From the UHGV virus genome UHGV-1366919: a DNA stretch of 64,000 nt; one strand, given 5' to 3'. Below are positions 3,866 through 53,897 of this stretch, in pieces; position 1 is the stretch's first letter; every line of letters begins with the position of its first letter. The notes under the pieces are model-generated. The model saw only the letters and a program-made list of their open reading frames with translations, was not told the origin of the DNA and did no database searches. This stretch comes from a virus. Both the position numbers and the translations under genes were made by a program.

Positions 3866-4869
3866 TAAACAATGTCTACTCTGGATAAAAGATTTAAATT
3901 AGATACCATGAATGATGCTGGATATTTTTCAAACCGGCAAAATGCAGTTTTATTAGCGCTTATTTTGGTAATAACATTTTCCGCTTTAGGAAATGTAATG
4001 CTTATTTCAGTATTTCCAGAATTTTTAATAGCAACCGTATAAGAAAATATATTAATATCTGGCATATTAGTAAAATTCCAATCTACAGTTTTATCAGCAT
4101 TAGTTTGAATAATATAACAAGGATCAATGCCGTCTGAAGCATAATCAAAATTCATATTATCGGTATAATTAATGATTTTATTATGACTTATTTCAGAAGC
4201 ACTAATAGCATCATCAACATATTTTTTAGTTGCTGCATGATTATCATTAGTAGGTGTTACAATTGTAACAGGTTTACCTTCAATTGATGGACCGCTATCT
4301 CTTACATAGAAACCATTTTCTACACTATCAACATTTGCATACATTGCTACTACATCAGCCTTACAAACCCAGGTATAATAATTTCCTTCATTTGAACCAT
4401 ACTGTACAGAACGATATGTTGGATAGATTTCCTCTTTCCAGGTCCTATCATTATTAAAAATTATGCCTCCTTGCCAAGAGGCAGATAATCCGCCTCCACT
4501 GGCAATATTTGCAATTACTTGCTGATAAGTTACTGTATGAGGATTAGACTTATTATCAATATGTGCAGTTAAATCTGTAGATTTGGCAAATGTATCTGAA
4601 ATAAGATCATCAGGAACTATACCGGAAGTAGGAATTAATAATACTTCATTAGGAGAAGTACCAGCATTATAATTTACTGCAGTTCCAAAATCTTTTTTAA
4701 AATAATTAGAAACTGTTCCTAAAGTAACTTTATTAGCTTCTTCCTCATAAACAGAATTAACTGAATCAAATTGTAAAACATAAAATAGACTAGTGTCTGC
4801 TAAAGGATCAGTAAGCGCCGGTAACTGATCTAATGTTACTAAATTAAATTCTGAAGGTGACGAAGCCAT
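3865..4869 (-). CDS. tail-fibre-like protein
   Basis: Contains DNHAATKKYVDDAI, a motif widespread in phage tail fibre and receptor-binding proteins (..AATKxYVD..). It is Gly/Ser/Thr/Asn-rich. Confidence 0.5.
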   Translation of the reverse strand: MASSPSEFNLVTLDQLPALTDPLADTSLFYVLQFDSVNSVYEEEANKVTLGTVSNYFKKDFGTAVNYNAGTSPNEVLLIPTSGIVPDDLISDTFAKSTDLTAHIDNKSNPHTVTYQQVIANIASGGGLSASWQGGIIFNNDRTWKEEIYPTYRSVQYGSNEGNYYTWVCKADVVAMYANVDSVENGFYVRDSGPSIEGKPVTIVTPTNDNHAATKKYVDDAISASEISHNKIINYTDNMNFDYASDGIDPCYIIQTNADKTVDWNFTNMPDINIFSYTVAIKNSGNTEISITFPKAENVITKISANKTAFCRFEKYPASFMVSNLNLLSRVDIV

Positions 4870-4886
4870 TGTTAAAATATTTAAAG

Positions 4887-6824
4887 TTAGAACCAGTTAG
4901 GTAAATCTCTGACACCAAATTGGTCAAAGCTATTCGGAAGGGTAATCTGGTTTCGATATTCATCTAAACTAAGGGTTTCTCCAAAATCTAAAAGATTCAT
5001 TTGCTTTTTTTGTTTAAAATCATTACTTGATGTAATGGTATTAATTTGACCTCTGCTAAATCCAGCCATCACTCCGATAAATGGAGATTCCATATCCAAC
5101 TCTTTATAAAGAGTATTAGCCCAATCAGTCCTGGGATCCATTTCCCATCGTTTTTTAATAACAAGAGGAATATTATTGACGTCTTTTTTATCAACAATAA
5201 GATAATTGTTAATTACTTTCTTATAAAGAGCAAAAAGACTCCAACATAAAGCCAAAACATGGTCATCATGGAATCCTGGTTGAGCACACCATCGAATATT
5301 ATTACTTTGATTACGAATGCAAGTAAATGTTCTTAATTCTTCAATAGTTTTTTTATCATAAATTTTGACAACTCGACGGTCATGAATATAATATTTCATA
5401 TTATGAACGCCTTCGCTTTTTGTCACTCTATTAGTAATAATACCCGGGAGAACTTTTCGCCCTGGGGTTTGCGGCCCGTATCCTGAACCGAAATTAATAA
5501 ATCTCGGATAATTATTTTCATAGAACAGCTTTTCACAAACATGGGCCCCAGGGCCGTTTCGTTCAACTGACATAATAGGAGAATACCACTGTTTTGCAAT
5601 TTCCAAGACTTTAGCCGCAAAAGTAGTAATATCCATTGTATTAGTTGAATATCTGGCGACCTGCTCAATATTCAGGGGGTCAGTAATATCAAAAATTTGA
5701 ATAACTGAATAGTCTTGTCCTACGCCTTCAGAAGTATCAACTCCCATGGTATAGATTTTTTCGGAATCAGGTTTTTTCCAAATATAATAATTTCCATCTT
5801 CTAATATGTTTAATGGTTCAATTAATTCTTTTGTGAACTTATCAAACATGTTAGGATCAAATGGAGAGCCCGAATTATTAAGAAACCTACATTCATATTC
5901 TTGAGTAAATGTATCATAGCTCATTGTGCTCAATTCAGCATCTTTCCAAGCTTCTGTTCTGCCAGGGAAATCAAACCAAAAAGCTTTCTCTAACGCAAAA
6001 TCGTTTCTTCCTTCTTCCGCCTTAGATACCAATTCATGAAATTTATTACCTACGCCCTTAGGAGTAGATGCCACAATAAGCTTTGCATTTTTATTATTAT
6101 TAAAACGAGAAGCAAGAGTAGGAGTAACAGCAGCCCAGAAAGCTTCAGCATCTTTAGGAGGAATAATAGCAAACTCGTCAAGAAGAAGAACATCAATAGC
6201 TAAACCACGAATAGCATCAGGTGAAGTAGCTGATGTTAAGATACGAGAACCATTCGCTAATGTAAAGAATGTTTTATTAAATTCAAGAACACCGCCCTTA
6301 ATCCAGTTTTCCATCATTTGGAAAGCCAGACGAACACGCATAAAAATTTCGGTTGCTGTTGACTGTTTGTTAGCGACAATACATACAGTTTGGTCAGGAT
6401 GAAATACTGCAACCCATGTAGCAACGATAGTCATTAAGGTCGTATTATGGGAAAGAATACCGTTGGCATAATATAAATGATTTGAATCTTTAGCTAATTC
6501 AAAATCATACATATTTTCCCATTCAGATGTTGCAATTACATCAACAACTTTATCTCCTCCATAATTAGTTGCAATATCTTCGCCAAGTGAATCTTTAGCA
6601 AAGACTTGCTCATCTTTCATAGTAATTAAAATATGATTATCGGCACATTCGAGAATATTACCTGTCTTGAATTTAATAATATATTTTTGATAAGGGACAG
6701 TTTTATTAATAGTTTTAATATCTGTCCATCCCTGATTTGAAGAAATTTGCCAATTTGAAGCATCAAGAACTTCTTCAAATTTTCTAAAAATTGTTTTAGA
6801 TAAATCTTTAAATTTTTTAAGCAT
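4887..6824 (-). CDS. terL: terminase large subunit, downstream part. It holds the intein C-terminal half, the post-P-loop ATPase core and the RNase-H-like nuclease domain.
   Basis: The intein C-terminal blocks are present (GNILECADNHILIT; MYDFELAKDSNHLYYANGILSHN followed by TT). Next come the TerL ATPase core (VCIVANKQSTATEIF...GSRILTSATSPDAIRG) and Walker B (LLLDEFA). The nuclease aspartates are also present (MGVDTSEGVGQDYSV; FHDDHVLALCW). Confidence 0.85.
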   Translation of the reverse strand: MLKKFKDLSKTIFRKFEEVLDASNWQISSNQGWTDIKTINKTVPYQKYIIKFKTGNILECADNHILITMKDEQVFAKDSLGEDIATNYGGDKVVDVIATSEWENMYDFELAKDSNHLYYANGILSHNTTLMTIVATWVAVFHPDQTVCIVANKQSTATEIFMRVRLAFQMMENWIKGGVLEFNKTFFTLANGSRILTSATSPDAIRGLAIDVLLLDEFAIIPPKDAEAFWAAVTPTLASRFNNNKNAKLIVASTPKGVGNKFHELVSKAEEGRNDFALEKAFWFDFPGRTEAWKDAELSTMSYDTFTQEYECRFLNNSGSPFDPNMFDKFTKELIEPLNILEDGNYYIWKKPDSEKIYTMGVDTSEGVGQDYSVIQIFDITDPLNIEQVARYSTNTMDITTFAAKVLEIAKQWYSPIMSVERNGPGAHVCEKLFYENNYPRFINFGSGYGPQTPGRKVLPGIITNRVTKSEGVHNMKYYIHDRRVVKIYDKKTIEELRTFTCIRNQSNNIRWCAQPGFHDDHVLALCWSLFALYKKVINNYLIVDKKDVNNIPLVIKKRWEMDPRTDWANTLYKELDMESPFIGVMAGFSRGQINTITSSNDFKQKKQMNLLDFGETLSLDEYRNQITLPNSFDQFGVRDLPNWF

Positions 6825-7875: not shown

Positions 7876-7923
7876 TTAATTAAAGCCCTGGAACTGATTT
7901 AATTCCTTTAAATATTAAACATA

Positions 7924-10228: not shown

Positions 10229-10711
10229 ATGAAATTATATGAAGTAAAAAAATTATCTTTAAAAGTATTAAAAGAATATGCTTCTAATGATGCTATTTTT
10301 ACTTCTATTTCTGGTAAAAAAGGAATAAAAGGTTCTGGGAAAAAAGCCGATAATATTGCTTTAGGAACTACTCGGGCATATCAAGATAATACATATCTTA
10401 CAAAATATGAAAAACAATTGCCCCATTTATCTAAACTTACCCAACAATTAAAAATTGGAGAAAATTCTGGAGCGCTGGAAGTGATAGGGCCGGCATTGGA
10501 AGAACTTCTTGTTCTGATTAAAGCTACAAAGCCGCTAACTTCTTATAAAGGCTTAGGATGGAAATTACCTCTTGGCGACAATATCTATTTGACTCAATCT
10601 GGTAAACAATACTTTATAAAGTATAATGGGCCTAAAGAAAAAGATCCTAATAAAAATGATTTAACCTCTACTGAACATCATGACAAAGCCATACTGTCCT
10701 CTCCTGCCTAA
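10229..10711 (+). CDS. hypothetical protein
   Basis: 160-aa ORF. Confidence 0.5.
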   Translation: MKLYEVKKLSLKVLKEYASNDAIFTSISGKKGIKGSGKKADNIALGTTRAYQDNTYLTKYEKQLPHLSKLTQQLKIGENSGALEVIGPALEELLVLIKATKPLTSYKGLGWKLPLGDNIYLTQSGKQYFIKYNGPKEKDPNKNDLTSTEHHDKAILSSPA

Positions 10712-11501
10712 AGATTTACCGGAAGGTTCTTTGGATGAATCATTACCTTGGATGGATGTATCTGATGCTTGTAATGATTATAATAATTTAGAAAATTTAG
10801 GCGGCCAGCAAGTAGTTGTTGATTCTGCCTGGAAGGATCTTATTAATTCTGCGGGAATGCCGATTTATTATTTTGTTTATAAATTTAATATAAAGCGTTC
10901 TGATAAAATTTGGGGTGAAGATATTCTTGCAGAATATGAAGAACCGTTTCAAATTAAAGCATATGTAGAAGTAAAAGATGTTCCTAAAATTTTAGGACCA
11001 ATGGGCGGCTTCTTCGCTGATGATACGATTACGGCTTATATTCATATTAAAACCTTTAATCGAAAGACTAAAGGAATGAAAGTTTTTGAAGATTTAAAAC
11101 TTAGATATGAGCCTAAACCCTCTGATTTGATTCAAATTATTGAATTCGGATGTGACAGGCCTGGAGGAAGAGGGGCTAAACTATTTGAGGTTACAAATAA
11201 AGAAGACGAGTTAATCTCTCAAAATTTGAATATGGGATTTGCCCATTATGTCTGGAAAATAACTGCGAAAAGATTTCAGTATAGTTATCAGGATGGCGCA
11301 ATTACTCCTTTCGGAGAAGAAAAGAATTGTCAAGTTTACGATAATCGCGTAGCGGGAATAATTGATACTCCAGAAGAAGTCAGAGATATGAATGCTCCTT
11401 CTGATAAGTCTTATGAATGGAATATTGATAAAAAATCCAAAGAAGAAATCTTTAATCAGAATGTAAATGACCAAACGGACATTTATGGTGGATATTATTA
11501 A
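10680..11501 (+). CDS. hypothetical protein
   Basis: 273-aa ORF. It overlaps the previous gene by 32 nt in a different frame. Confidence 0.55.
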   Translation: MTKPYCPLLPKDLPEGSLDESLPWMDVSDACNDYNNLENLGGQQVVVDSAWKDLINSAGMPIYYFVYKFNIKRSDKIWGEDILAEYEEPFQIKAYVEVKDVPKILGPMGGFFADDTITAYIHIKTFNRKTKGMKVFEDLKLRYEPKPSDLIQIIEFGCDRPGGRGAKLFEVTNKEDELISQNLNMGFAHYVWKITAKRFQYSYQDGAITPFGEEKNCQVYDNRVAGIIDTPEEVRDMNAPSDKSYEWNIDKKSKEEIFNQNVNDQTDIYGGYY

Positions 11502-11505
11502 AATT

Positions 11506-11542
11506 AAAAAAGCTGAATCAAATTAATGATTCAGCTTTTTTA
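11506..11542. terminator. Bidirectional palindromic terminator, family member (aaaaaagctgaatca-aattaa-tgattcagctttttt)
   Basis: Perfect palindrome with A-run and T-run flanks. It sits between convergent genes. Confidence 0.6.
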
Positions 11543-12618
11543 ATCTCTTCTTGAATTAAAAGTTTTATTTGATCTTTATTTTTCTTCCATTTACTTTCCC
11601 AAATTTCTATCAATGTAATTCCCCTTTCAATACATTGATTTCTTTTATTTTCATGATAACCCAGATTTCGATCTTCGTGTAATTTATGCCAGTAATCTCC
11701 ATTATATTCAAAGGCTAATTTTAATTCGGGGAGATAAATATCAAGCTCTAATTGATTATCAAGTTGATTTCTAGAATTTTTTATAATTTTTCTTGAATAT
11801 ATCGAATTAATATATTCAAAAAGTTCTTTTTCACCTTTAGATCTTTTCGAAGCTTTTACACATTTAATACAGCCACTTCCATTTAAATGAATATATGCTC
11901 TTTGTCGAAAGACACCATGCCTTGGACAAATAATATTCACATAATCACGAGCACTTTTATAGATAACTAAGGAATAATTATATTTGTCTCCATGAACTTC
12001 TTGAGCTCTTTTAATAAATTCTTCAGTTGTTAAAAATTGCTTTTCTCTTTTACATTCTGGACATTCATTGCCTTGTAAATGTGACCCTGCATGTTGTCGA
12101 AATAATCCATGCTTAGGACATATTATTGTTATATGATTTTTTACGCCATTATAAATCACTTTAGAATAATCATAATAATTTCCATGCACTTTTTTAGCTT
12201 TTTCAATAAATTCTTCTCTTGATAAAAGATCTTTTATTTTAGCACAATAAGGACACCCACTTCCATTTAAATGGCTGCCAGCCATTTGTTCAAATTTATG
12301 CCCGCATTTATTACAAATAATCCAAATTTTTGATTTACAATTTACGTATATCGATATTGAATAATTATACTTATCACCATGAACTTTTCTTGCTTTTTCT
12401 ATAAATTTTTCTGTTGTTAACTGTGCCGTGGGAATACATTTAGGACATCCACATCCTCTTAAATGTTCTGATGCTTTTTGCCAAAAATATCCATGCTCAG
12501 GACAACCAATTTCTATTTTTGCAAGACTACTTTTATATTCAACTCTTGAATAATCATATTTGTCACCATGTATTTCTTTAGCCCTTTGTATAAATTCTTC
12601 AGTTGTTAGCTTTTTCAT
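11518..12618 (-). CDS. Homing-endonuclease-like protein, paralog 2. Four tandem Zn-ribbon modules plus a C-terminal PD-(D/E)xK/Vsr-like nuclease.
   Basis: The module (F)I.KA..VHGDKY(D/N)YS...Y......I(I)C..HG.F.Q....HL.G.GCP.C occurs four times. The C-terminus carries ELDIYLPELKLAFEYNGDYWH. Confidence 0.65.
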   Translation of the reverse strand: MKKLTTEEFIQRAKEIHGDKYDYSRVEYKSSLAKIEIGCPEHGYFWQKASEHLRGCGCPKCIPTAQLTTEKFIEKARKVHGDKYNYSISIYVNCKSKIWIICNKCGHKFEQMAGSHLNGSGCPYCAKIKDLLSREEFIEKAKKVHGNYYDYSKVIYNGVKNHITIICPKHGLFRQHAGSHLQGNECPECKREKQFLTTEEFIKRAQEVHGDKYNYSLVIYKSARDYVNIICPRHGVFRQRAYIHLNGSGCIKCVKASKRSKGEKELFEYINSIYSRKIIKNSRNQLDNQLELDIYLPELKLAFEYNGDYWHKLHEDRNLGYHENKRNQCIERGITLIEIWESKWKKNKDQIKLLIQEEIKKAESLI

Positions 12619-12725
12619 AACTAAACTTTAATTTTATATAATAATTCTCAATTTTATTTGGTACTAAATTAATAGTAAGTGTATTAATGATTTTTATACA
12701 ATCTATACGCTAATAAATAATTACT

Positions 12726-13220
12726 ATGAAAAAGTTTAAAGTAAAAGAACTTAGATTTTCTAATTTACTCGTTGAAGATATAAATGTTCCCAAAAATCTT
12801 ATTGTTCGAATTAAGAATATTCCTAGATCTAAAAAGGCTTTACTTGAAGAAGTTGCTAAGAAAATTAGCGAAAAATATGGAAAAGATGTTAAACACTTTA
12901 TTCTTGAAGATTTAGAAATAGAAGGGCCAAAGAATTTTGCTAAAAATCCTACTATTACAAAGCGTCTTCAAAAACGTCGAAAAGTTTTGAAAAACTATAT
13001 TGATGAAATAGGTGAAGAAGATAGTCAATTAAGTTATGAAGTTACAAAAGCTATTATAAATGTTTTTGGTGAAAAATTTTTAGACAAATATAGTGTTAAT
13101 ATTCGCGATCAAATTGAAAAATTTAGTAAAAAATTGCGGGTCTTAAAACACTTGCTGATAGGCCAAAAGATGATCCTTATAAAAAGCGGTTGGATAACTG
13201 GAGGATTGGTTAACCTTTAA
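12726..13220 (+). CDS. hypothetical lysine-rich protein
   Basis: 164-aa ORF. Confidence 0.5.
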   Translation: MKKFKVKELRFSNLLVEDINVPKNLIVRIKNIPRSKKALLEEVAKKISEKYGKDVKHFILEDLEIEGPKNFAKNPTITKRLQKRRKVLKNYIDEIGEEDSQLSYEVTKAIINVFGEKFLDKYSVNIRDQIEKFSKKLRVLKHLLIGQKMILIKSGWITGGLVNL

Positions 13221-13222
13221 AA

Positions 13223-13258
13223 GAAAAAGCTAAGTCATTGATCTGACTTAGCTTTTTC
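13223..13258. terminator. Bidirectional palindromic terminator, family member (aaaaagctaagtca-ttgat-ctgacttagcttttt)
   Basis: Palindrome with A/T flanks between the convergent genes at 12726..13220 (+) and 13359..16205 (-). Confidence 0.6.
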
Positions 13259-13358
13259 TTTAAATTCTTCTAATGTTAATTTTCTCATATAAATTTTAAG
13301 GGTTTCCATAGAAAATATGGAAACCCTTAAAATTATTCGGTGTTAATTTAGTGCAGTA

Positions 13359-16205
13359 TTAAGCGCTAAATTCTGTTGAAATCACGCCAGATCTAGAAGC
13401 GGTCAAGTCAATGAGAATGCGTTCTGCACTACGCGTTGGAGCTGCATATGTTGAGATACGCATTACACCGGCATCGATCTCAGTTTCCGTATTATTCCTT
13501 TCATCGCAAACAAGAACATAAGAATAGATTGCTCGTTGTTCTTGTAGTGCATCAAATGCTGGAGTTAACACATTTGTTACATTCAAACGGGTGTACAAAG
13601 TATTACCTTCAAACAGCCATTGCTTGGCAGTATCACGCAACAGTTTAAGAATGTAAAGCATTGTTCTTCGGGCAGAAATTTGATCTAACGCTGAGTCGCG
13701 CTTTATCATAGTTCTAATTCCGTACAACATTGTTCCGGAAGAAGGAGATACGATAATCGGATTAAGAGAAATACGATATAAATCATCTCGTTGCTTTTGC
13801 TGAGTGGAGAAGGAAATATCAAGCACAGAACTTAGTACACCATTATTCATTCCAGCGGCGGCTTGCCATGGACCATATAAGGCATCCGTAGCAGCAATCT
13901 TTTGAGCGACAAATCCAGAAGCAGGAGCCCAGAATTGAGTACTGTTTACAGGATCTTGTACCTTTAAGAAATACGGATAAACAGCCATATAAGAGGAAGC
14001 TAATCCATCATATAAATGCCTGTTAGGCCAGTAGATTGAAGTCGAGAAAGAATGCTTAACATTATCCAGAGCAGTATAAGCTGCATTGACTAAGGGCATT
14101 CCAAATTGTTTTTCAATCTTATTATCCTTGCCTTCAACGGAAATTTGACGAATTGTATCACCAATGAAGAATACATCGCCTCGTCCGCCTTCTTGCTGAG
14201 CAGAAGCTAATTTTAAGAAAGCCGATTGAATAGCTCGATGATTAGCGATTACTTGTTCAGCTGTGGAAGATAATGTAGACTTACCAGTACGCATATCCGT
14301 TACACCTTGAATAACTTTGGTATCATCGAATAATGCAGCTTCTGGATCATAGCCATTCGGATATTGCTCCTTAACTTTATCTTGTTCAGTTGTTTGGCCA
14401 TCCCCACGCTCGGTATCAGCCCTAATTGCAGCCTGGAGCTTTTCTTCATAGCTTTGATAAGCCACATCCATAGCTCCGACATAGATAGTTCCCATACCGC
14501 CTTCCAACAGAAGGTCAACGTCATAGAGTTCTTCATTTTCGACTAATTCAAGGGCAGCCTCGATTTTCTTGGGAAGATTACCAATGATTTTAGAAGCATT
14601 ATTGGAACGGGCATATAAACCTAACGGATACATGGAATCACCCATTTCAAAGGTCGGATAATCAGTTGGAATACTTTGAAGAACAGCCTTTGAAATACCG
14701 GCCGGAGAAGCCATGATGTCTTCGATGGAACCCGCCATTTCATCATCAGTCAATGCAATGTCAAGCAATTGCTGGGCATAAATACGAACCTTAATCTTCG
14801 GAGAACCGTCAACATATAGTCCGCGAGAATTTAACGCTCCTGAGAAGTTCGGATTAACAAACATGCGAACTAAAGTATCATTAGCCGTTGTATTCTCAAT
14901 AAAGAAGTTAACTGCAGATGTAGTATACTTGGAAGTAGTCTGTCGTCCATATTCTAAGGAAGCATTATATCCTTGAGTAATCAGGGCAGAAAGTTTAAGA
15001 GCATCTCCAGAATTAGTAGCCTGGCGAACCTTAAAGACGCCTACATTTAATGTATCATTCCATTGAGCTCCGGAAATATCAAAATCAGTGATGGATTCTT
15101 CCATAACCTGAGAGATACATCCTTTCAACGGAGAAGAAAGCTTAAAGTCAAGGCGTTCATTAGGAACAGTCGTATACTGAAGACCCGTAAGACCTTCTTC
15201 AATAGAAGCAGGAAGCTGAGTTACAGTCTTAAGCTTGCGCACGGCCGCATAAGAAGTACCAGGATCAGAGAAAGCATTATCGGATAACGCAAGATAAAAA
15301 CCTTCAAAAAGATCATTTGTTACCGTCTTGCCAAAGTTAAGAGCTAAGAAAGCAAACTGCCCCAAATCGGCAAGCTGAGTAGAAATAGTTTGAGGAATTG
15401 CATCGGACCAGTTAAATTCTCCAGAACCATCCAAAGCTTGTCCATTTAAAAATCGATAATACTGTTCAATAGAAATATTAAACTGAACAGGTTCACCGAT
15501 TAAAAATGTAGCGGAATCTTCATATTCACCTTTGATACCGGCGGAACCATCTGAATAATTCGTAATAGGCTTAAAGGAATTATTAGCAGATTGAACATAA
15601 TAAGTTGCAAAGACAGCATTCTGAGTTGGAACATCTGTTACCTCAGTATATTCAGATCCATTCTTAGTATAGATCGTAACCTTATTGGTGAAATTAGTTA
15701 ACGGAGTTCCGGCCTGGTCCGTATAATATTGAACCTGCACTTTAGCAGCAATATCAGGAGAAACAGGAGTATAAGAAGTAGAACGGGTTACCTTGGTATA
15801 AAGCTGAACAGATGTATCAATACGTTGTTCAGGGGTAGCTTCATTATAAACTTCTTCAGAATCAATAGCATATCCAAGAGCCGGATAAGCAAGAATAGAA
15901 ACGGAAGCAGATTTAGTATCTCCTAAGTCTACACCATAAGGAAGTCGGGAAACACTTACATAAGCAGCAGAATTTAATGCTGCGTCTACTGTTGCATAAG
16001 AATAGCGCTCAGAACTTGTAACAGGTTCTCCGAATATTTCAACATATTCACTGATTGTCGAAACAGAAGTAACTTCAGAAGTAGGTCCTTGTTGGCTGAA
16101 AATTGGTATAAAGACCGACGTTCCGGCAGACTGCGCCGCTCGTGTCGATTGGTCGCGTTCCAAAATTTCGACGCCCGGGCTGATAATTGTGGGTGTAATT
16201 GCCAT
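13359..16205 (-). CDS. tail sheath protein (contractile tail), 948 aa
   Basis: The N-terminus MAITPTIISPGVEILERDQS resembles sheath N-termini such as T4 gp18 (MTLLSPGIELKETTVQ). The C-terminal region matches the conserved gp18 C-terminal domain pattern: LNPIIVSPSSGTMLYGIRT...DQISARRTMLYILK...YSYVLVCDERNNTETEIDAGVMRISTYAAPTRSAERILIDL. Confidence 0.85.
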   Translation of the reverse strand: MAITPTIISPGVEILERDQSTRAAQSAGTSVFIPIFSQQGPTSEVTSVSTISEYVEIFGEPVTSSERYSYATVDAALNSAAYVSVSRLPYGVDLGDTKSASVSILAYPALGYAIDSEEVYNEATPEQRIDTSVQLYTKVTRSTSYTPVSPDIAAKVQVQYYTDQAGTPLTNFTNKVTIYTKNGSEYTEVTDVPTQNAVFATYYVQSANNSFKPITNYSDGSAGIKGEYEDSATFLIGEPVQFNISIEQYYRFLNGQALDGSGEFNWSDAIPQTISTQLADLGQFAFLALNFGKTVTNDLFEGFYLALSDNAFSDPGTSYAAVRKLKTVTQLPASIEEGLTGLQYTTVPNERLDFKLSSPLKGCISQVMEESITDFDISGAQWNDTLNVGVFKVRQATNSGDALKLSALITQGYNASLEYGRQTTSKYTTSAVNFFIENTTANDTLVRMFVNPNFSGALNSRGLYVDGSPKIKVRIYAQQLLDIALTDDEMAGSIEDIMASPAGISKAVLQSIPTDYPTFEMGDSMYPLGLYARSNNASKIIGNLPKKIEAALELVENEELYDVDLLLEGGMGTIYVGAMDVAYQSYEEKLQAAIRADTERGDGQTTEQDKVKEQYPNGYDPEAALFDDTKVIQGVTDMRTGKSTLSSTAEQVIANHRAIQSAFLKLASAQQEGGRGDVFFIGDTIRQISVEGKDNKIEKQFGMPLVNAAYTALDNVKHSFSTSIYWPNRHLYDGLASSYMAVYPYFLKVQDPVNSTQFWAPASGFVAQKIAATDALYGPWQAAAGMNNGVLSSVLDISFSTQQKQRDDLYRISLNPIIVSPSSGTMLYGIRTMIKRDSALDQISARRTMLYILKLLRDTAKQWLFEGNTLYTRLNVTNVLTPAFDALQEQRAIYSYVLVCDERNNTETEIDAGVMRISTYAAPTRSAERILIDLTASRSGVISTEFSA

Positions 16206-16320
16206 AATATATTTTTAAGTTAAATTATTAAATCTTAGAAAGTTTAACAAAAGATATTTACATTTATAACGGCTAGTTCAGGTTCTATTTTACTTCTTGG
16301 ATAAATAAACACTCTTCAAT

Positions 16321-17714
16321 TTAGCACCAAAATAAAATCAGGATAAAATAATATCCAATTTATGGCAATTAAACGACTTACGACAGAAATTTTTATAGAA
16401 AGGGCCAAAGCAAAACACGGTATAGACAGGTATGATTACTCGGCAACCAATTATACCCATTGTAATAATAAAATTATAATCAAGTGTTTAATACATAATT
16501 TAATATTTGAAACCTACCCCCATAATCATTTAAGAGGGAATGGAGGTTGCCCTCTATGTGCTAAAGAAGGACGATCTTTATCATGGCAATCTTTTTTAGA
16601 AAAAAGCATCGAAGCTCACGGGCAAAATCGATATGATTATTCATATGCTAAAAAAGAGTATAAAGGAACCAAATCAAAAATTACAATAATATGTAAAAAA
16701 TGTGGACATAGATTTGTTCAATTACCTTCTAATCATATAAAAGGCCATGGTTGTATAAATTGTGTAAATTTAGCTAAATCATTTGATAAAAATTTCTTTA
16801 TTAAAGAGGCAGAAAAGAAACATGGTATTGGGAGATATGATTACTCAAAAATAAAATATAAAAATTCATATACTCCCATTTATATTATTTGTAATAAATG
16901 TAATAAAAAATTTTATCAGCAGCCACGAATACATTTAAAAGGAATTGGATGTTCTCATTGTTATTATAAAAGTAAAACATTAACTAAGGAAGAATTTATT
17001 AAAAGAGCTGAAGAAATACATGAAAAAGGAAAATATGATTATTCTAATGTAGAATATATACAGTCTAACATTAAGATTAAAATTAAATGTAATAAATGTA
17101 ATAATATTTTTTGGCAATATCCCCATGAACATTTAAAAGCCAAAGGATGCCGAATTTGTGCAATTAAAGATATTACTGATACAAAAGAAACATTTATTAA
17201 AAAGGCAAAGAAAGTTCATAAGGATTTTTATGATTATTCAAGTATAAAATATATAAATTCTCAAACTTTAATTTATATTAATTGTCCAAAACATGGTTTT
17301 TTCGCACAACGGCCAAATGCTCATCTAAGAGGTCATGGATGTCCGAATTGTGCACTCGCTGCACAAAGATCTCGAGGAGAAATAGAACTTGGAGAATTTA
17401 TTAAATCAATTTATTCCAATAAAATTTTAAAAAATTCTAAAACACAACTTGGAAATAAAATGGAATTGGATATATATCTTCCTGAATTAAAACTCGCCAT
17501 TGAGTATAATGGCGATTATTGGCATAATTTGAAAGAGGCCAAACATCCTGGCTGCCATGAAGATAAAAGAAACCGATGTAAAGAAAGAGGAATTAAACTT
17601 ATTGAAGTTTTAGATACGGAATGGCAAAAGAATAAAGATCAAATTAAAGAATCTCTTAAAAAACAAATTGGAGAACTTATCAAAATTAGCACCAAAATAA
17701 AATCAGGATAAAAT
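16321..17714 (+). mobile_element. Homing-endonuclease gene cassette bounded by 29-30 bp direct repeats (ttagcaccaaaataaaatcaggataaaat)
   Basis: The repeat at 16321..16350 and the one at 17686..17714 are identical over 29 nt. The second copy encodes the last residues (ISTKIKSG*) of the enclosed ORF. Confidence 0.55.
16362..17711 (+). CDS. Homing-endonuclease-like protein, paralog 3. Six tandem Zn-ribbon modules plus a C-terminal PD-(D/E)xK/Vsr-like nuclease.
   Basis: Repeated ..HG..RYDYS...Y......I.C..H..F......HL.G.GC..C modules. The C-terminus carries MELDIYLPELKLAIEYNGDYWH. Confidence 0.65.
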   Translation: MAIKRLTTEIFIERAKAKHGIDRYDYSATNYTHCNNKIIIKCLIHNLIFETYPHNHLRGNGGCPLCAKEGRSLSWQSFLEKSIEAHGQNRYDYSYAKKEYKGTKSKITIICKKCGHRFVQLPSNHIKGHGCINCVNLAKSFDKNFFIKEAEKKHGIGRYDYSKIKYKNSYTPIYIICNKCNKKFYQQPRIHLKGIGCSHCYYKSKTLTKEEFIKRAEEIHEKGKYDYSNVEYIQSNIKIKIKCNKCNNIFWQYPHEHLKAKGCRICAIKDITDTKETFIKKAKKVHKDFYDYSSIKYINSQTLIYINCPKHGFFAQRPNAHLRGHGCPNCALAAQRSRGEIELGEFIKSIYSNKILKNSKTQLGNKMELDIYLPELKLAIEYNGDYWHNLKEAKHPGCHEDKRNRCKERGIKLIEVLDTEWQKNKDQIKESLKKQIGELIKISTKIKSG

Positions 17715-17779
17715 GAATATATTTTAAAAAGTTAAAAACATACTTAACTAAGTGCGCAATATATATATATATTAATACT

Positions 17780-19243
17780 ATGAGTAATATTACTGAAGAA
17801 CAAAAAGCTGAATTCCTGAAATATTATCCCGACCATGAAGATAAGCTAGAAGAAATTATCGAATACAATTGTTTATCTTCCTGCGAAGATGATCGTATAT
17901 TTTGTTTTTATGATGTTAAATTTGATCCGAATAAGTCAACACTAGAAAAGGTTGATTATTTGAATCCAATGGGAATATATAGCAATTTAGTCTGTTATAT
18001 TGAACGAGGAGATATGAGGAGATCTGATAACTCTATCATCTCTTCTATTGAAGAATTAGTAAAAACTATTAAAGAATTTCCTTATGTTATTTTTGATGCA
18101 AATACTGCAGTTATTAAAATTCAAGGAGTTATAGAAAATAGTGAAGATCCTGACCTTAGCGGAATTAAAATTAACATTTATAAATTTGATAAAAAGAAAA
18201 ATAAATTTATTAATGAACAAGCTGGATTTCATTCTTACCATCATGAATTAAATGATTTTATTGAATTCATTTATCAATTTGTAAATGATGCAATAAAAGA
18301 ATATGTTAGAGTTAGAGGTAAAGACGGTAATAATTATTTCATGCTTCATCCTAATGTCTATAAGAATAATGAAGAAAAACCTGAAAGCAATAATTCAAAA
18401 TCTCTTAAATCTATTATAGACGAATGGAAACAGAAGGTTGATAAAGATCTCGTTATGATTGGAGGCGATCTAAGATTTAAGGATGAAATTAAAAATAAAA
18501 TTGAGGAAGATAAATTATACCTTGAACGTCTTATTGCAGAAGCTGACCAGCAAAGGGAAGTAATAGAGGAAAATCCTGACAATGATATTGAAGAAAAAAT
18601 AAATCAAGCTATTATTAATGCTCGTAAGGAGCCTCCTGTTGATCTACCGGAAGAACTTCAAGAAGAGCTTATTGAAAGCATGAAAGATTATAACGATTAT
18701 TTTCATAATCCAAATAATAAGCTTCGAGGAGAATATTTTGATGATTTAATCGAACAGCTTAATAATTCTAAAAAGAACTGCTGTTTAATGAAACTTAATA
18801 AAGATACTGCTACTTGGCTTACCGTTACTGATTTCTTTGAAGAACAAGAAGATACGCTTTTAAGCAAGCTTCTTGAATTTGATCCGGTCATTGAAAAACA
18901 TGATGAAAATTATACGTTAATCAAATTTAAACGAGAAGTATTTGACCAGAATAAAGAAAAGATTGAGAAGATTCAACATCAGTATTTTGCCAGGGCTAAT
19001 TCTTTTACTGATTTTGATTTTGACCTTGATTTTAAAATAGTTAGTTTAACCAAAGATGAACATAACTTTATCGTTAGTAATTTAAAGAAACATGCAATTA
19101 TTTCCTCAAATGCAGAACCTGAATTTAAAGGATTTTTCAGGAATATTGTTCAGTATGCTCCTGAATTAGAAAATGAAGATATTGAATATATCTTTGAGAT
19201 AACTGATAAATGTTTGCCAACATCTGTTAAAAATAGACTTTAA
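17780..19243 (+). CDS. hypothetical acidic protein, 487 aa
   Basis: Long ORF, D/E-rich, with no recognisable catalytic motif. Confidence 0.6.
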   Translation: MSNITEEQKAEFLKYYPDHEDKLEEIIEYNCLSSCEDDRIFCFYDVKFDPNKSTLEKVDYLNPMGIYSNLVCYIERGDMRRSDNSIISSIEELVKTIKEFPYVIFDANTAVIKIQGVIENSEDPDLSGIKINIYKFDKKKNKFINEQAGFHSYHHELNDFIEFIYQFVNDAIKEYVRVRGKDGNNYFMLHPNVYKNNEEKPESNNSKSLKSIIDEWKQKVDKDLVMIGGDLRFKDEIKNKIEEDKLYLERLIAEADQQREVIEENPDNDIEEKINQAIINARKEPPVDLPEELQEELIESMKDYNDYFHNPNNKLRGEYFDDLIEQLNNSKKNCCLMKLNKDTATWLTVTDFFEEQEDTLLSKLLEFDPVIEKHDENYTLIKFKREVFDQNKEKIEKIQHQYFARANSFTDFDFDLDFKIVSLTKDEHNFIVSNLKKHAIISSNAEPEFKGFFRNIVQYAPELENEDIEYIFEITDKCLPTSVKNRL

Positions 19244-19369: not shown

Positions 19370-19405
19370 AAAAAGCTGAGTCATTAATTTGACTCAGCTT
19401 TTTCT
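19370..19405. terminator. Bidirectional palindromic terminator, family member (aaaaagctgagtca-ttaatt-tgactcagcttttt)
   Basis: Perfect palindrome between the convergent genes at 17780..19243 (+) and 19431..19997 (-). Confidence 0.6.
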
Positions 19406-53661: not shown

Positions 53662-53882
53662 TGCAAACACCGATTAAAGTTTCAAATATTAAATCAAGTG
53701 ATCTTTTGACTGAATCTTTATATGATATTAAAGATCAAGAATTTACTTTAGTAGAAAATAAAGATAATCCAATGTCTTTAGCCGTTAAAAAAGATTTAAT
53801 CAAAATTGTTTTGGAAGATATTCTAAAAATGCCGATTAAATCTTTCAGTGTAAAGAAAATGAAAAAAGCTGAGTCAAACTAA
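53646..53882 (+). CDS. hypothetical small protein
   Basis: 78-aa ORF ending inside the terminator palindrome. Confidence 0.35.
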   Translation: MEASLMQTPIKVSNIKSSDLLTESLYDIKDQEFTLVENKDNPMSLAVKKDLIKIVLEDILKMPIKSFSVKKMKKAESN

Positions 53883-53897
53883 TGACTCAGCTTTTTA
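53864..53897. terminator. Bidirectional palindromic terminator, family member (aaaaagctgagtca-aactaa-tgactcagcttttt)
   Basis: Palindrome between the convergent genes at 53646..53882 (+) and 54166..55245 (-). Confidence 0.6.

Follow-up and report, generated by a model that had tools for sequence, protein, structure and literature searches.

Direct repeats around a phage homing endonuclease gene point to a probable target duplication in the leader of its downstream neighbour

A pair of perfect 29-nt direct repeats flanks HEG3, the third homing endonuclease gene (HEG) in the window, by which we mean the whole 64-kb stretch of viral DNA that was analysed. With moderate confidence, we consider the pair to be the core of a target duplication of about 47 nt, formed as HEG3 entered the 5' leader of ORF487, the gene that now lies downstream. 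The repeat is real and non-random, and is part of a duplication longer than first noticed. The features needed to follow the argument are listed below, by window coordinates and strand.

12631-12682, minus strand: third, diverged copy of the repeat unit, upstream of HEG paralog 2 (11518-12618)
13359-16205, minus strand: tail sheath gene, the left neighbour, 948 aa, Pfam Phage_sheath_1C; transcribed away from the insertion site
16255-16260, minus strand: promoter-like hexamer TAAATA facing the sheath gene; conserved at the equivalent place in the related contig L030
16302-16307, plus strand: promoter-like hexamer TAAATA facing HEG3 and ORF487; lies directly against the left end of the unit; also conserved at the L030 empty site, at 7897
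16308-16354, plus strand: duplicated unit, copy 1, with its perfect core at 16321-16349; contiguous with the native left flank, which is also present in L030
16355-16361, plus strand: insert-borne CCAATTT, the 7 bases before the HEG3 start codon; without counterpart after copy 2 or in L030
16362-17711, plus strand: HEG3, allele A, 449 aa; five treble-clef zinc-ribbon modules and a predicted Vsr/EDxHD-like nuclease domain
16442-17624, plus strand: allele-specific interior of HEG3, about 65% identical in nucleotides to allele B of contigs L001, L002, L037 and L038
17672-17720, plus strand: duplicated unit, copy 2, with its perfect core at 17686-17714; encodes the last ~13 codons of HEG3 and the stop
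17721-17779, plus strand: remaining native leader of ORF487, which aligns to L030 through blocks such as TTAACTAAGTGCGCAAT
17780-19243, plus strand: ORF487, the right neighbour; no Pfam or PHROG family

The repeat and the gene that it brackets

The 29-mer (TTAGCACCAAAATAAAATCAGGATAAAAT) is found, on the plus strand, at 16321-16349 and 17686-17714. These are its only exact copies in the 64-kb window, and allowing up to three mismatches adds no other match. It is also the longest exact repeat in the window, the runner-up being 19 nt. Logically, DNA this rich in AT (the window has 31% GC) might repeat itself by accident. Yet none of 100 dinucleotide-preserving shuffles contained two matches, the copies bracket a mobile gene exactly and, as described below, they co-vary in contig L037. 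We consider the probability of a chance repeat to be negligible. Hence, the original prediction, of perfect direct repeats around HEG3 that would not be expected by chance, is upheld, with one correction. Copy 1 ends at 16349, and the end given earlier, 16350, was one base too far.

The end of copy 1 is separated from the ATG of the HEG3 open reading frame by 12 nt. Copy 2 was thought to span the last codons and the stop of the same gene, and does so precisely: it supplies the final 7 2/3 codons, (I)STKIKSG, followed by the TAA stop (17709-17711) and three further bases. Note that the similarity does not end with the perfect match. If a 1-nt indel (G17715) is allowed, the match runs on through AATAT. 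To the left, a degenerate extension enlarges the repeat unit to ~47-49 nt, over which copies 1 and 2 are identical at 42 of 49 positions. We conclude that the duplication spans ~47-49 nt and is best preserved in the 29-mer pair. No terminal inverted repeats are present at the ends of the HEG3 cassette, and no flanking repeats of note surround the other two HEG paralogs in the window (11518-12618, 46% identical to HEG3, and 465-1994).

The insert contains a single open reading frame, the endonuclease itself. No transposase, integrase or recombinase was found in it by ORF, Pfam or PHROG annotation. HEG3 matches Pfam DUF4379, phrog_559 (4e-79) and phrog_3339, the last described as 'homing endonuclease', and has 4-5 zinc-ribbon modules of the treble-clef, DUF4379/DUF723 kind. 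A profile built from six C-terminal domains matched one solved structure only, 3r3p_A, over 80 residues and with a weak score (E=0.0039). This structure is the catalytic domain of I-Bth0305I, crystallised with D196A and H213A mutations; the enzyme serves as the prototype for a family, the Vsr-like EDxHD homing endonucleases, to which phage Hef also belongs, and its cleavage leaves 2-nt overhangs (PMC3239194). In the window proteins, these two mutated positions correspond to D in ELDIY and H in YWH, and the E-x-N-G block is conserved. Hence, despite the weak score, the conserved acidic and histidine residues suggest that the HEG3 nuclease domain is a homolog of the I-Bth0305I/Vsr type. The two proteins differ in their surroundings. 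I-Bth0305I is intron-encoded and has NUMOD/HTH DNA-binding modules, whereas HEG3 is free-standing and has zinc-ribbon modules.

The C-terminus of HEG3 is unusual for its family. Eight other members share a tail, ...KNK(D/E)(Q/E)IK-L(L/S)IQEEIKKAE..., that ends the protein. HEG3 leaves this tail right after KNKDQIK and ends ...ESLKKQIGELIKISTKIKSG, and its homology to paralog 2 stops at amino acid 436. The HEG3 tail reads ...GELIKISTKIKSG before the stop. In contig L037, a 1-nt indel to the left of copy 2 shifts the reading frame, so that the protein ends ...INLAPK, while the DNA of the 29-mer is intact. The amino acids encoded by copy 2 are not conserved. Since the family tail has been replaced in HEG3, and the tail changes again in L037, the last ~13 codons and the stop are best read as duplicated non-coding DNA. 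Copy 2 thus appears to have been recruited as the coding tail and stop of HEG3, in place of the family tail.

An empty site in a related lineage

HEG3 sits between the tail sheath gene and ORF487. Sheath proteins of cultured phages are at most 31% identical to that of the window, and the best matches are from T4-like cyanophages and T4. For ORF487 there are homologs with 93% and 74% identity, and the latter is found at the empty site described below. Beyond ORF487 are a tail tube gene and then baseplate genes. No close DNA relative was found among GenBank phages. Proteins identical to HEG3 and ORF487 are encoded on many human-gut metagenome contigs of ~200-210 kb (1866 and 654 index blocks, respectively). 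Together, these observations indicate an abundant, uncultured gut myovirus.

In contig L030, the sheath gene and the ORF487 homolog (P0002, 74% identical) are adjacent, 198 bp apart, and there is no HEG. The L030 lineage is ~84% identical to the window in DNA, which is to say ~16% diverged. Contigs L031 and L032 have the same empty-site sequence, making three independent assemblies in all. Hence, the HEG is polymorphic for presence and absence at one site: occupied in the window-type contigs that span it, and empty in the L030 lineage. As judged from these sequences, a site of this type between two conserved genes, the sheath gene and ORF487, is what is seen with free-standing HEGs.

The intergenic DNA of L030 consists of the window's left flank, one diverged homolog of the repeat and the window's right flank (...TAAATAAACATTCTCAAAATTTGCACCTAATTTTTTCAAGGAAATTTATATATT GAATATATT...). 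Compared with L030, copy 1 is joined to native sequence on its left, and copy 2 to native sequence on its right. The single unit at the empty site is identical to copy 1 at 37 of 57 positions and to copy 2 at 37 of 58 (about 65%). Over the 29-mer core, identity to L030 is ~54%, gaps included; it is 56% over the rest of the leader and 87% on the promoter side. The core is not deeply constrained, and resembles the rest of the leader in this respect. Note that, because the single L030 copy is so strongly diverged, its homology is recognised largely by position and by the flanks. There is a further trace on the left side of copy 2, where the HEG3 coding sequence (GAACTTATCAAAATTA) resembles the left context of the empty site in L030 (AACATTCTCAAAATTT). 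In an anchored extension, the left side of copy 2 scored 9 against the L030 left flank (null mean 1.5, sd 1.7, P=0.003).

It had been predicted that a related genome would join the sheath upstream region directly to the ORF at 17780, through a single repeat copy. Such a junction is indeed present in L030, L031 and L032, albeit in a background ~16% diverged from the window and with a copy that has itself diverged. The single homologous unit in these three assemblies also bears out the suggestion that the repeats are the footprint of an insertion or duplication. Two observations had been named that would speak against this. One was the presence of both repeat copies in genomes that lack the HEG, and no such genome was found. 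The other was that the repeat is a common motif at many loci. This is not so; there are three copies per genome.

Whether L030 represents the state before insertion is a separate matter. More distant sheath homologs (63-67% identity) are in a different gene order. With only one empty lineage, and with the outgroup candidates rearranged, L030 could have lost the HEG secondarily, via these repeats.

The hexamer TAAATA helps to define what was duplicated. Within the window, intergenic regions upstream of genes show a 28-fold enrichment for it (11 of the 23 have the hexamer; P=6e-13), and it is strongly avoided elsewhere: the total is 31 copies where 216 would be expected, and 19 of these 31 fall within non-coding DNA, which makes up 7% of the window. 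Its usual starting point is 12-16 nt ahead of the start codon. TAAATA resembles the T4 late promoter, TATAAATA, and is a candidate late-promoter hexamer for this phage group. The rightward copy at 16302-16307 is the only plus-strand TAAATA within 16200-17800. Hence, there is none between HEG3 and ORF487, and none near copy 2. The duplicated unit starts at the base right after this hexamer. The arrangement suggests that HEG3 and ORF487 are probably co-transcribed, and that the unit corresponds to the first ~47 nt of the ORF487 leader. Further along the leader, an (AT)n run at ~17759-17772 varies between strains through indels.

Age, alleles and identity of the copies

Both 29-mers are perfect in all 26 of the other contigs that have both copies. 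Approximately 17 loci were fetched independently of the HEG, starting from ORF487, from the sheath gene or from a probe of intergenic DNA, and all were occupied. For the probe, taken from conserved sheath-side intergenic DNA, this applies to each recovered locus that extends as far as the site.

The gene between the repeats is present as two alleles. Allele B, carried by L001, L002, L037 and L038, encodes a protein of 377 or 373 aa that is one zinc-ribbon module shorter and 47% identical to that of allele A. The two alleles have both repeats in common, as well as 27 codons at the start and ~30 at the end; homology between the window and allele-B genomes stops at ~16441 and resumes at ~17625. 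Since alleles only 47% identical share both repeats, the duplication must be older than the allelic substitution of the interior. The insertion was originally described as recent. Conversely, our comparison indicates an old scar, carried by all of the window-type contigs that span the site and by both alleles.

How, then, have the copies stayed identical? Contigs L037 and L002 are 7% diverged over the cassette. There are no changes in either core, where ~4 would be expected in 58 nt (P~0.02). Just outside the core, both copies in L037 show derived states, 'tcaat' to the left and 'aacat' to the right. In the remaining strains, the states are tcaat/aatat for copy 1 and tcaaaat/gaatat for copy 2. 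The same derived states in both L037 copies indicate concerted evolution, most simply by gene conversion between the copies. We conclude that gene conversion explains the identity of the copies better than recency does.

In principle, the repeats are able to support excision of the cassette. Precise excision, as originally proposed, was not seen. A search of the IMG/VR and JGI metagenomes for an empty junction (left flank, 0-30 nt, right flank) gave no matches, and the ~17 HEG-independent loci were occupied. A deleted HEG is apparent elsewhere in the window. At 13235-13288, on the minus strand, the first 13 codons of an L039-like HEG run straight into the terminator arm in which a HEG tail is normally encoded, and this fusion joins at a shared ~10-nt sequence, AAAAAGCTRA. 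Hence, HEG loss through short repeats does occur in this lineage, and L030 could be secondarily empty. Whether L030 is primarily or secondarily empty, the repeat would still originate from a target duplication.

Origin of the duplication and its precedents

Fill-in of the enzyme's own staggered cut is, in our view, not the source of the duplication. The characterised family member I-Bth0305I leaves 2-nt overhangs (PMC3239194), and these do not explain ~47 nt. Target duplications of 46-47 bp are known where restriction-modification genes have inserted in bacteria (PMC2853133). Mobile elements of T4 have been proposed to reach ectopic sites through illegitimate repair of breaks at microhomologies (PMC2988022). 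We suggest that HEG3 entered by illegitimate, microhomology-type break repair, with its two junctions in the leader overlapping by ~47 nt. The gene would then have become the first cistron of a late-type ORF487 transcript. ORF487 would have kept a complete leader of its own immediately upstream (copy 2 plus 17721-17779), so that the cost of insertion would be low. Afterwards, gene conversion would have kept both copies identical, and the interior of the HEG would have been replaced at least once, by recombination within the conserved first 27 and last ~30 codons.

The main rival to target duplication is that the unit is a functional cis-element: a promoter, operator or endonuclease binding site, borne by the cassette, needed at HEG3, paralog 2 and ORF487, and kept identical by selection. 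The exact 29-mer occurs only twice, yet a diverged third copy lies upstream of paralog 2. Here, the sequence is ACACTTACTATTAATTTAGTACC-AAATAAAAT...ATAAAAT-N12-ATG, compared with ACACTCTTCAATTTAGCACCAAAATAAAAT...ATAAAAT-N12-ATG at copy 1, and the N12 spacing is equal. In L030, ORF274 and ORF162 are adjacent at the position of paralog 2. Hence, the stretch with the third copy arrived with the paralog-2 cassette, and the upstream similarity runs continuously into the homologous open reading frames. Taken alone, this similarity is modest, with a score of 35 against a null mean of 19 (sd 7) and a null maximum of 40. The border of paralog 2 may be a copy taken from the HEG3 locus, or else the unit may help to regulate these genes; the third copy fits later copying and a cassette-borne regulatory element equally well. 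The cis-element account also draws on the absence of any SNP in either copy in any strain, including the 7% diverged L037 (P~0.02), and on the sequence of the 29-mer, which reads TTAGCA-N17-TAAAAT and matches a sigma-70 type promoter at 9 of 12 positions. TAAAAT is mildly enriched, 3.5-fold, in intergenic DNA. We rejected the sigma-70 reading of the 29-mer, since matches this good are common in such an AT-rich region (21 found, 13.8 expected) and the strongly supported hexamer, TAAATA, is outside the repeat, just to the left of copy 1. Other evidence against a cis-element is the poor conservation of the core in L030, no better than that of the rest of the leader. Those HEG family members that adjoin the sheath terminator have no copy of the unit. 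Nor is the motif linked to HEGs in other phages: its matches in IMG/VR are unrelated coding sequences with no HEG nearby, and 47 genome matches are scattered across taxa, as by chance. No RNA structure signal was detected around either copy (z-scores of -0.03 and -0.5). Altogether, we think a cis-element possible, though unlikely.

Copy 2 might instead be the leader of a second HEG cassette, once in tandem after HEG3 and now deleted, with the L030 copy being a solo scar. HEGs of this lineage are often gained, replaced and deleted, several arrangements exist around the sheath gene, and the fusion at 13235-13288 is an example of 13 codons left behind by a deleted HEG. Unlike that fusion, copy 2 is not followed by any significant remnant of a HEG start, only by a short AAAAAG run picked out by eye. 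Furthermore, the sequence to the left of copy 2 is similar to the native left flank at the empty site, which would not be expected of HEG3's own coding tail, and copy 2 is continuous with the native right flank. Hence, we regard a tandem array as improbable. Direct repeats around a discrete insert, with one copy in the empty site, could also be the target-site duplication of a transposase or the att pair of a site-specific recombinase. However, the insert is one endonuclease gene, with no transposase or integrase. The cassette has neither terminal inverted repeats nor a recombinase paired with a short, fixed duplication. At ~47 nt, the unit is far longer than usual transposon duplications (PMC2853133), and its ends are frayed, with no fixed core. 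Such an origin is very improbable indeed.

A more speculative scheme, to which we give little credence, treats the unit and the first 27 and last ~30 codons as a 'docking frame', the unit being a recognition site or operator of the endonuclease and its copies being kept by gene conversion. If so, with one native flank per copy, an occupied genome would be protected from its own enzyme yet still be bound by it for autoregulation. Interiors 47% identical would be swapped in and out by recombination, and divergence of the unit in L030 would be escape from cleavage.

Returning to target duplication, the closest precedent for the HEG3 locus is the insertion with long target duplication described by Nobusato, Furuta and Kobayashi (PMC2853133). 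In both cases, a nuclease gene has been inserted without a transposase or integrase, and is flanked by direct repeats of tens of bp, published examples including 46-47 bp. In both, the two repeats align to one copy in a related genome without the insert, and there is allelic substitution at the same locus. The differences are also clear. Here, the insert is a single phage HEG rather than a bacterial restriction-modification pair. The perfect core is 29 nt in the window and 34 nt in L037, which is borderline against a published cut-off of ~30 bp for long target duplications, and outside the core the ~47-nt unit is frayed. The downstream repeat appears to serve as a coding tail and stop. Finally, our comparison genome is ~16% diverged, and its single copy is about 65% identical to either repeat. 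Hence, the HEG3 locus adds a further case to a known kind of event, for which a phage HEG is a new setting, and is not a new kind of system. The scar is informative but fairly ordinary. The arrival of free-standing HEGs at new sites is ascribed to rare illegitimate events, whose natural footprints are seldom seen. This locus keeps such a footprint, in an abundant, uncultured ~200-kb human-gut phage, and provides a concrete, testable case of how a selfish nuclease gene may enter a new site at low cost.

To our knowledge, from literature searches, a gene that spreads by classical homing is copied through homologous repair, and no duplication is left on either side of it. HEG3 differs from classical homing by free-standing T4 genes in having one, and both its cleavage activity and its target site are putative. 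In other respects, HEG3 resembles the free-standing HEGs of T4 (seg, mob and hef; PMC2988022). It is located between conserved genes, for tail sheath and ORF487, downstream of a late-type promoter that is putative in the case of HEG3. There is presence or absence at the same site, there are several paralogs per genome, and neighbouring alleles have been replaced and deleted.

Strain variation and allele replacement at the HEG3 locus

Among 21 related genomes, the density of SNPs is near zero across HEG3, the free-standing homing endonuclease gene (HEG) at 16362-17711, and about 200 bp of its left flank (about 16000-17700). Neighbouring genes have 5-29 variable sites per 100 nt in the same set. 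A sweep could account for such low diversity, and so could co-conversion by homing. Note that part of the signal is sampling bias, since about half of the loci were fetched using the exact HEG protein. In one strain, L017, the gene (4580-5930, equivalent to window positions 16362-17711) is broken into ORFs of 347 and 83 amino acids. This is a decaying copy. Despite the split, both flanking 29-mer repeats are still perfect.

Substitution between alleles A and B, the two versions of the HEG found at this site, has crossover points within 16362-16441 and 17625-17671. The left crossover directly follows the first conserved RYDYS motif and the right one falls at the conserved W(Q/K)KNKDQIK. These positions suggest that family members recombine at conserved module sequences. 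Separately, an (AT)n run at 17759-17772, just 5' of ORF487, differs in length by 2-10 nt among strains.

Terminator hairpins, HEG tails and a second hotspot

The window contains a family of near-identical bidirectional terminator hairpins (AAAAAGCTGARTCA-loop-TGAYTCAGCTTTTT), and a remnant of a deleted HEG.

11503-11541, bidirectional terminator hairpin
13225-13258, bidirectional terminator hairpin, same family
19372-19405, bidirectional terminator hairpin, same family
53862-53897, bidirectional terminator hairpin, same family
13235-13288, minus strand, HEG remnant

In hairpins of this kind, one arm encodes the conserved C-terminal tail (...EEIKKAES) of HEGs other than HEG3. Thus, other HEGs too end inside native non-coding elements. 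The remnant keeps the first 13 codons of a HEG (MRKLTLEEFKEKA...), which match the HEG adjoining the sheath terminator in L039. These codons are fused to the arm of the terminator in which the tail of a HEG is normally encoded. The fusion point is a shared sequence of about 10 nt, AAAAAGCTRA.

Comparison with L005, L010, L013, L025, L030 and L039 identified 10680-13358, on the opposite side of the sheath gene from HEG3, as a second HEG hotspot. At least four HEG alleles occur here (366-491 amino acids, 46-70% identical), their positions relative to ORF164 vary between genomes, and ORF164 is itself missing from some strains.

The TAAATA hexamer

A window-wide count of TAAATA gave 28-fold enrichment in the DNA upstream of genes and about 20-fold depletion within ORFs, with 31 copies observed against 216 expected. 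Examples are:

451, 7909, 12714, 16302, 20018, 31937, 52780, plus strand, TAAATA
16255, 20005, 52765, minus strand, TAAATA

The hexamer is probably the T4-late-like promoter core of this phage. Since it usually starts 12-16 nt before the ATG, most genes would have very short leaders.
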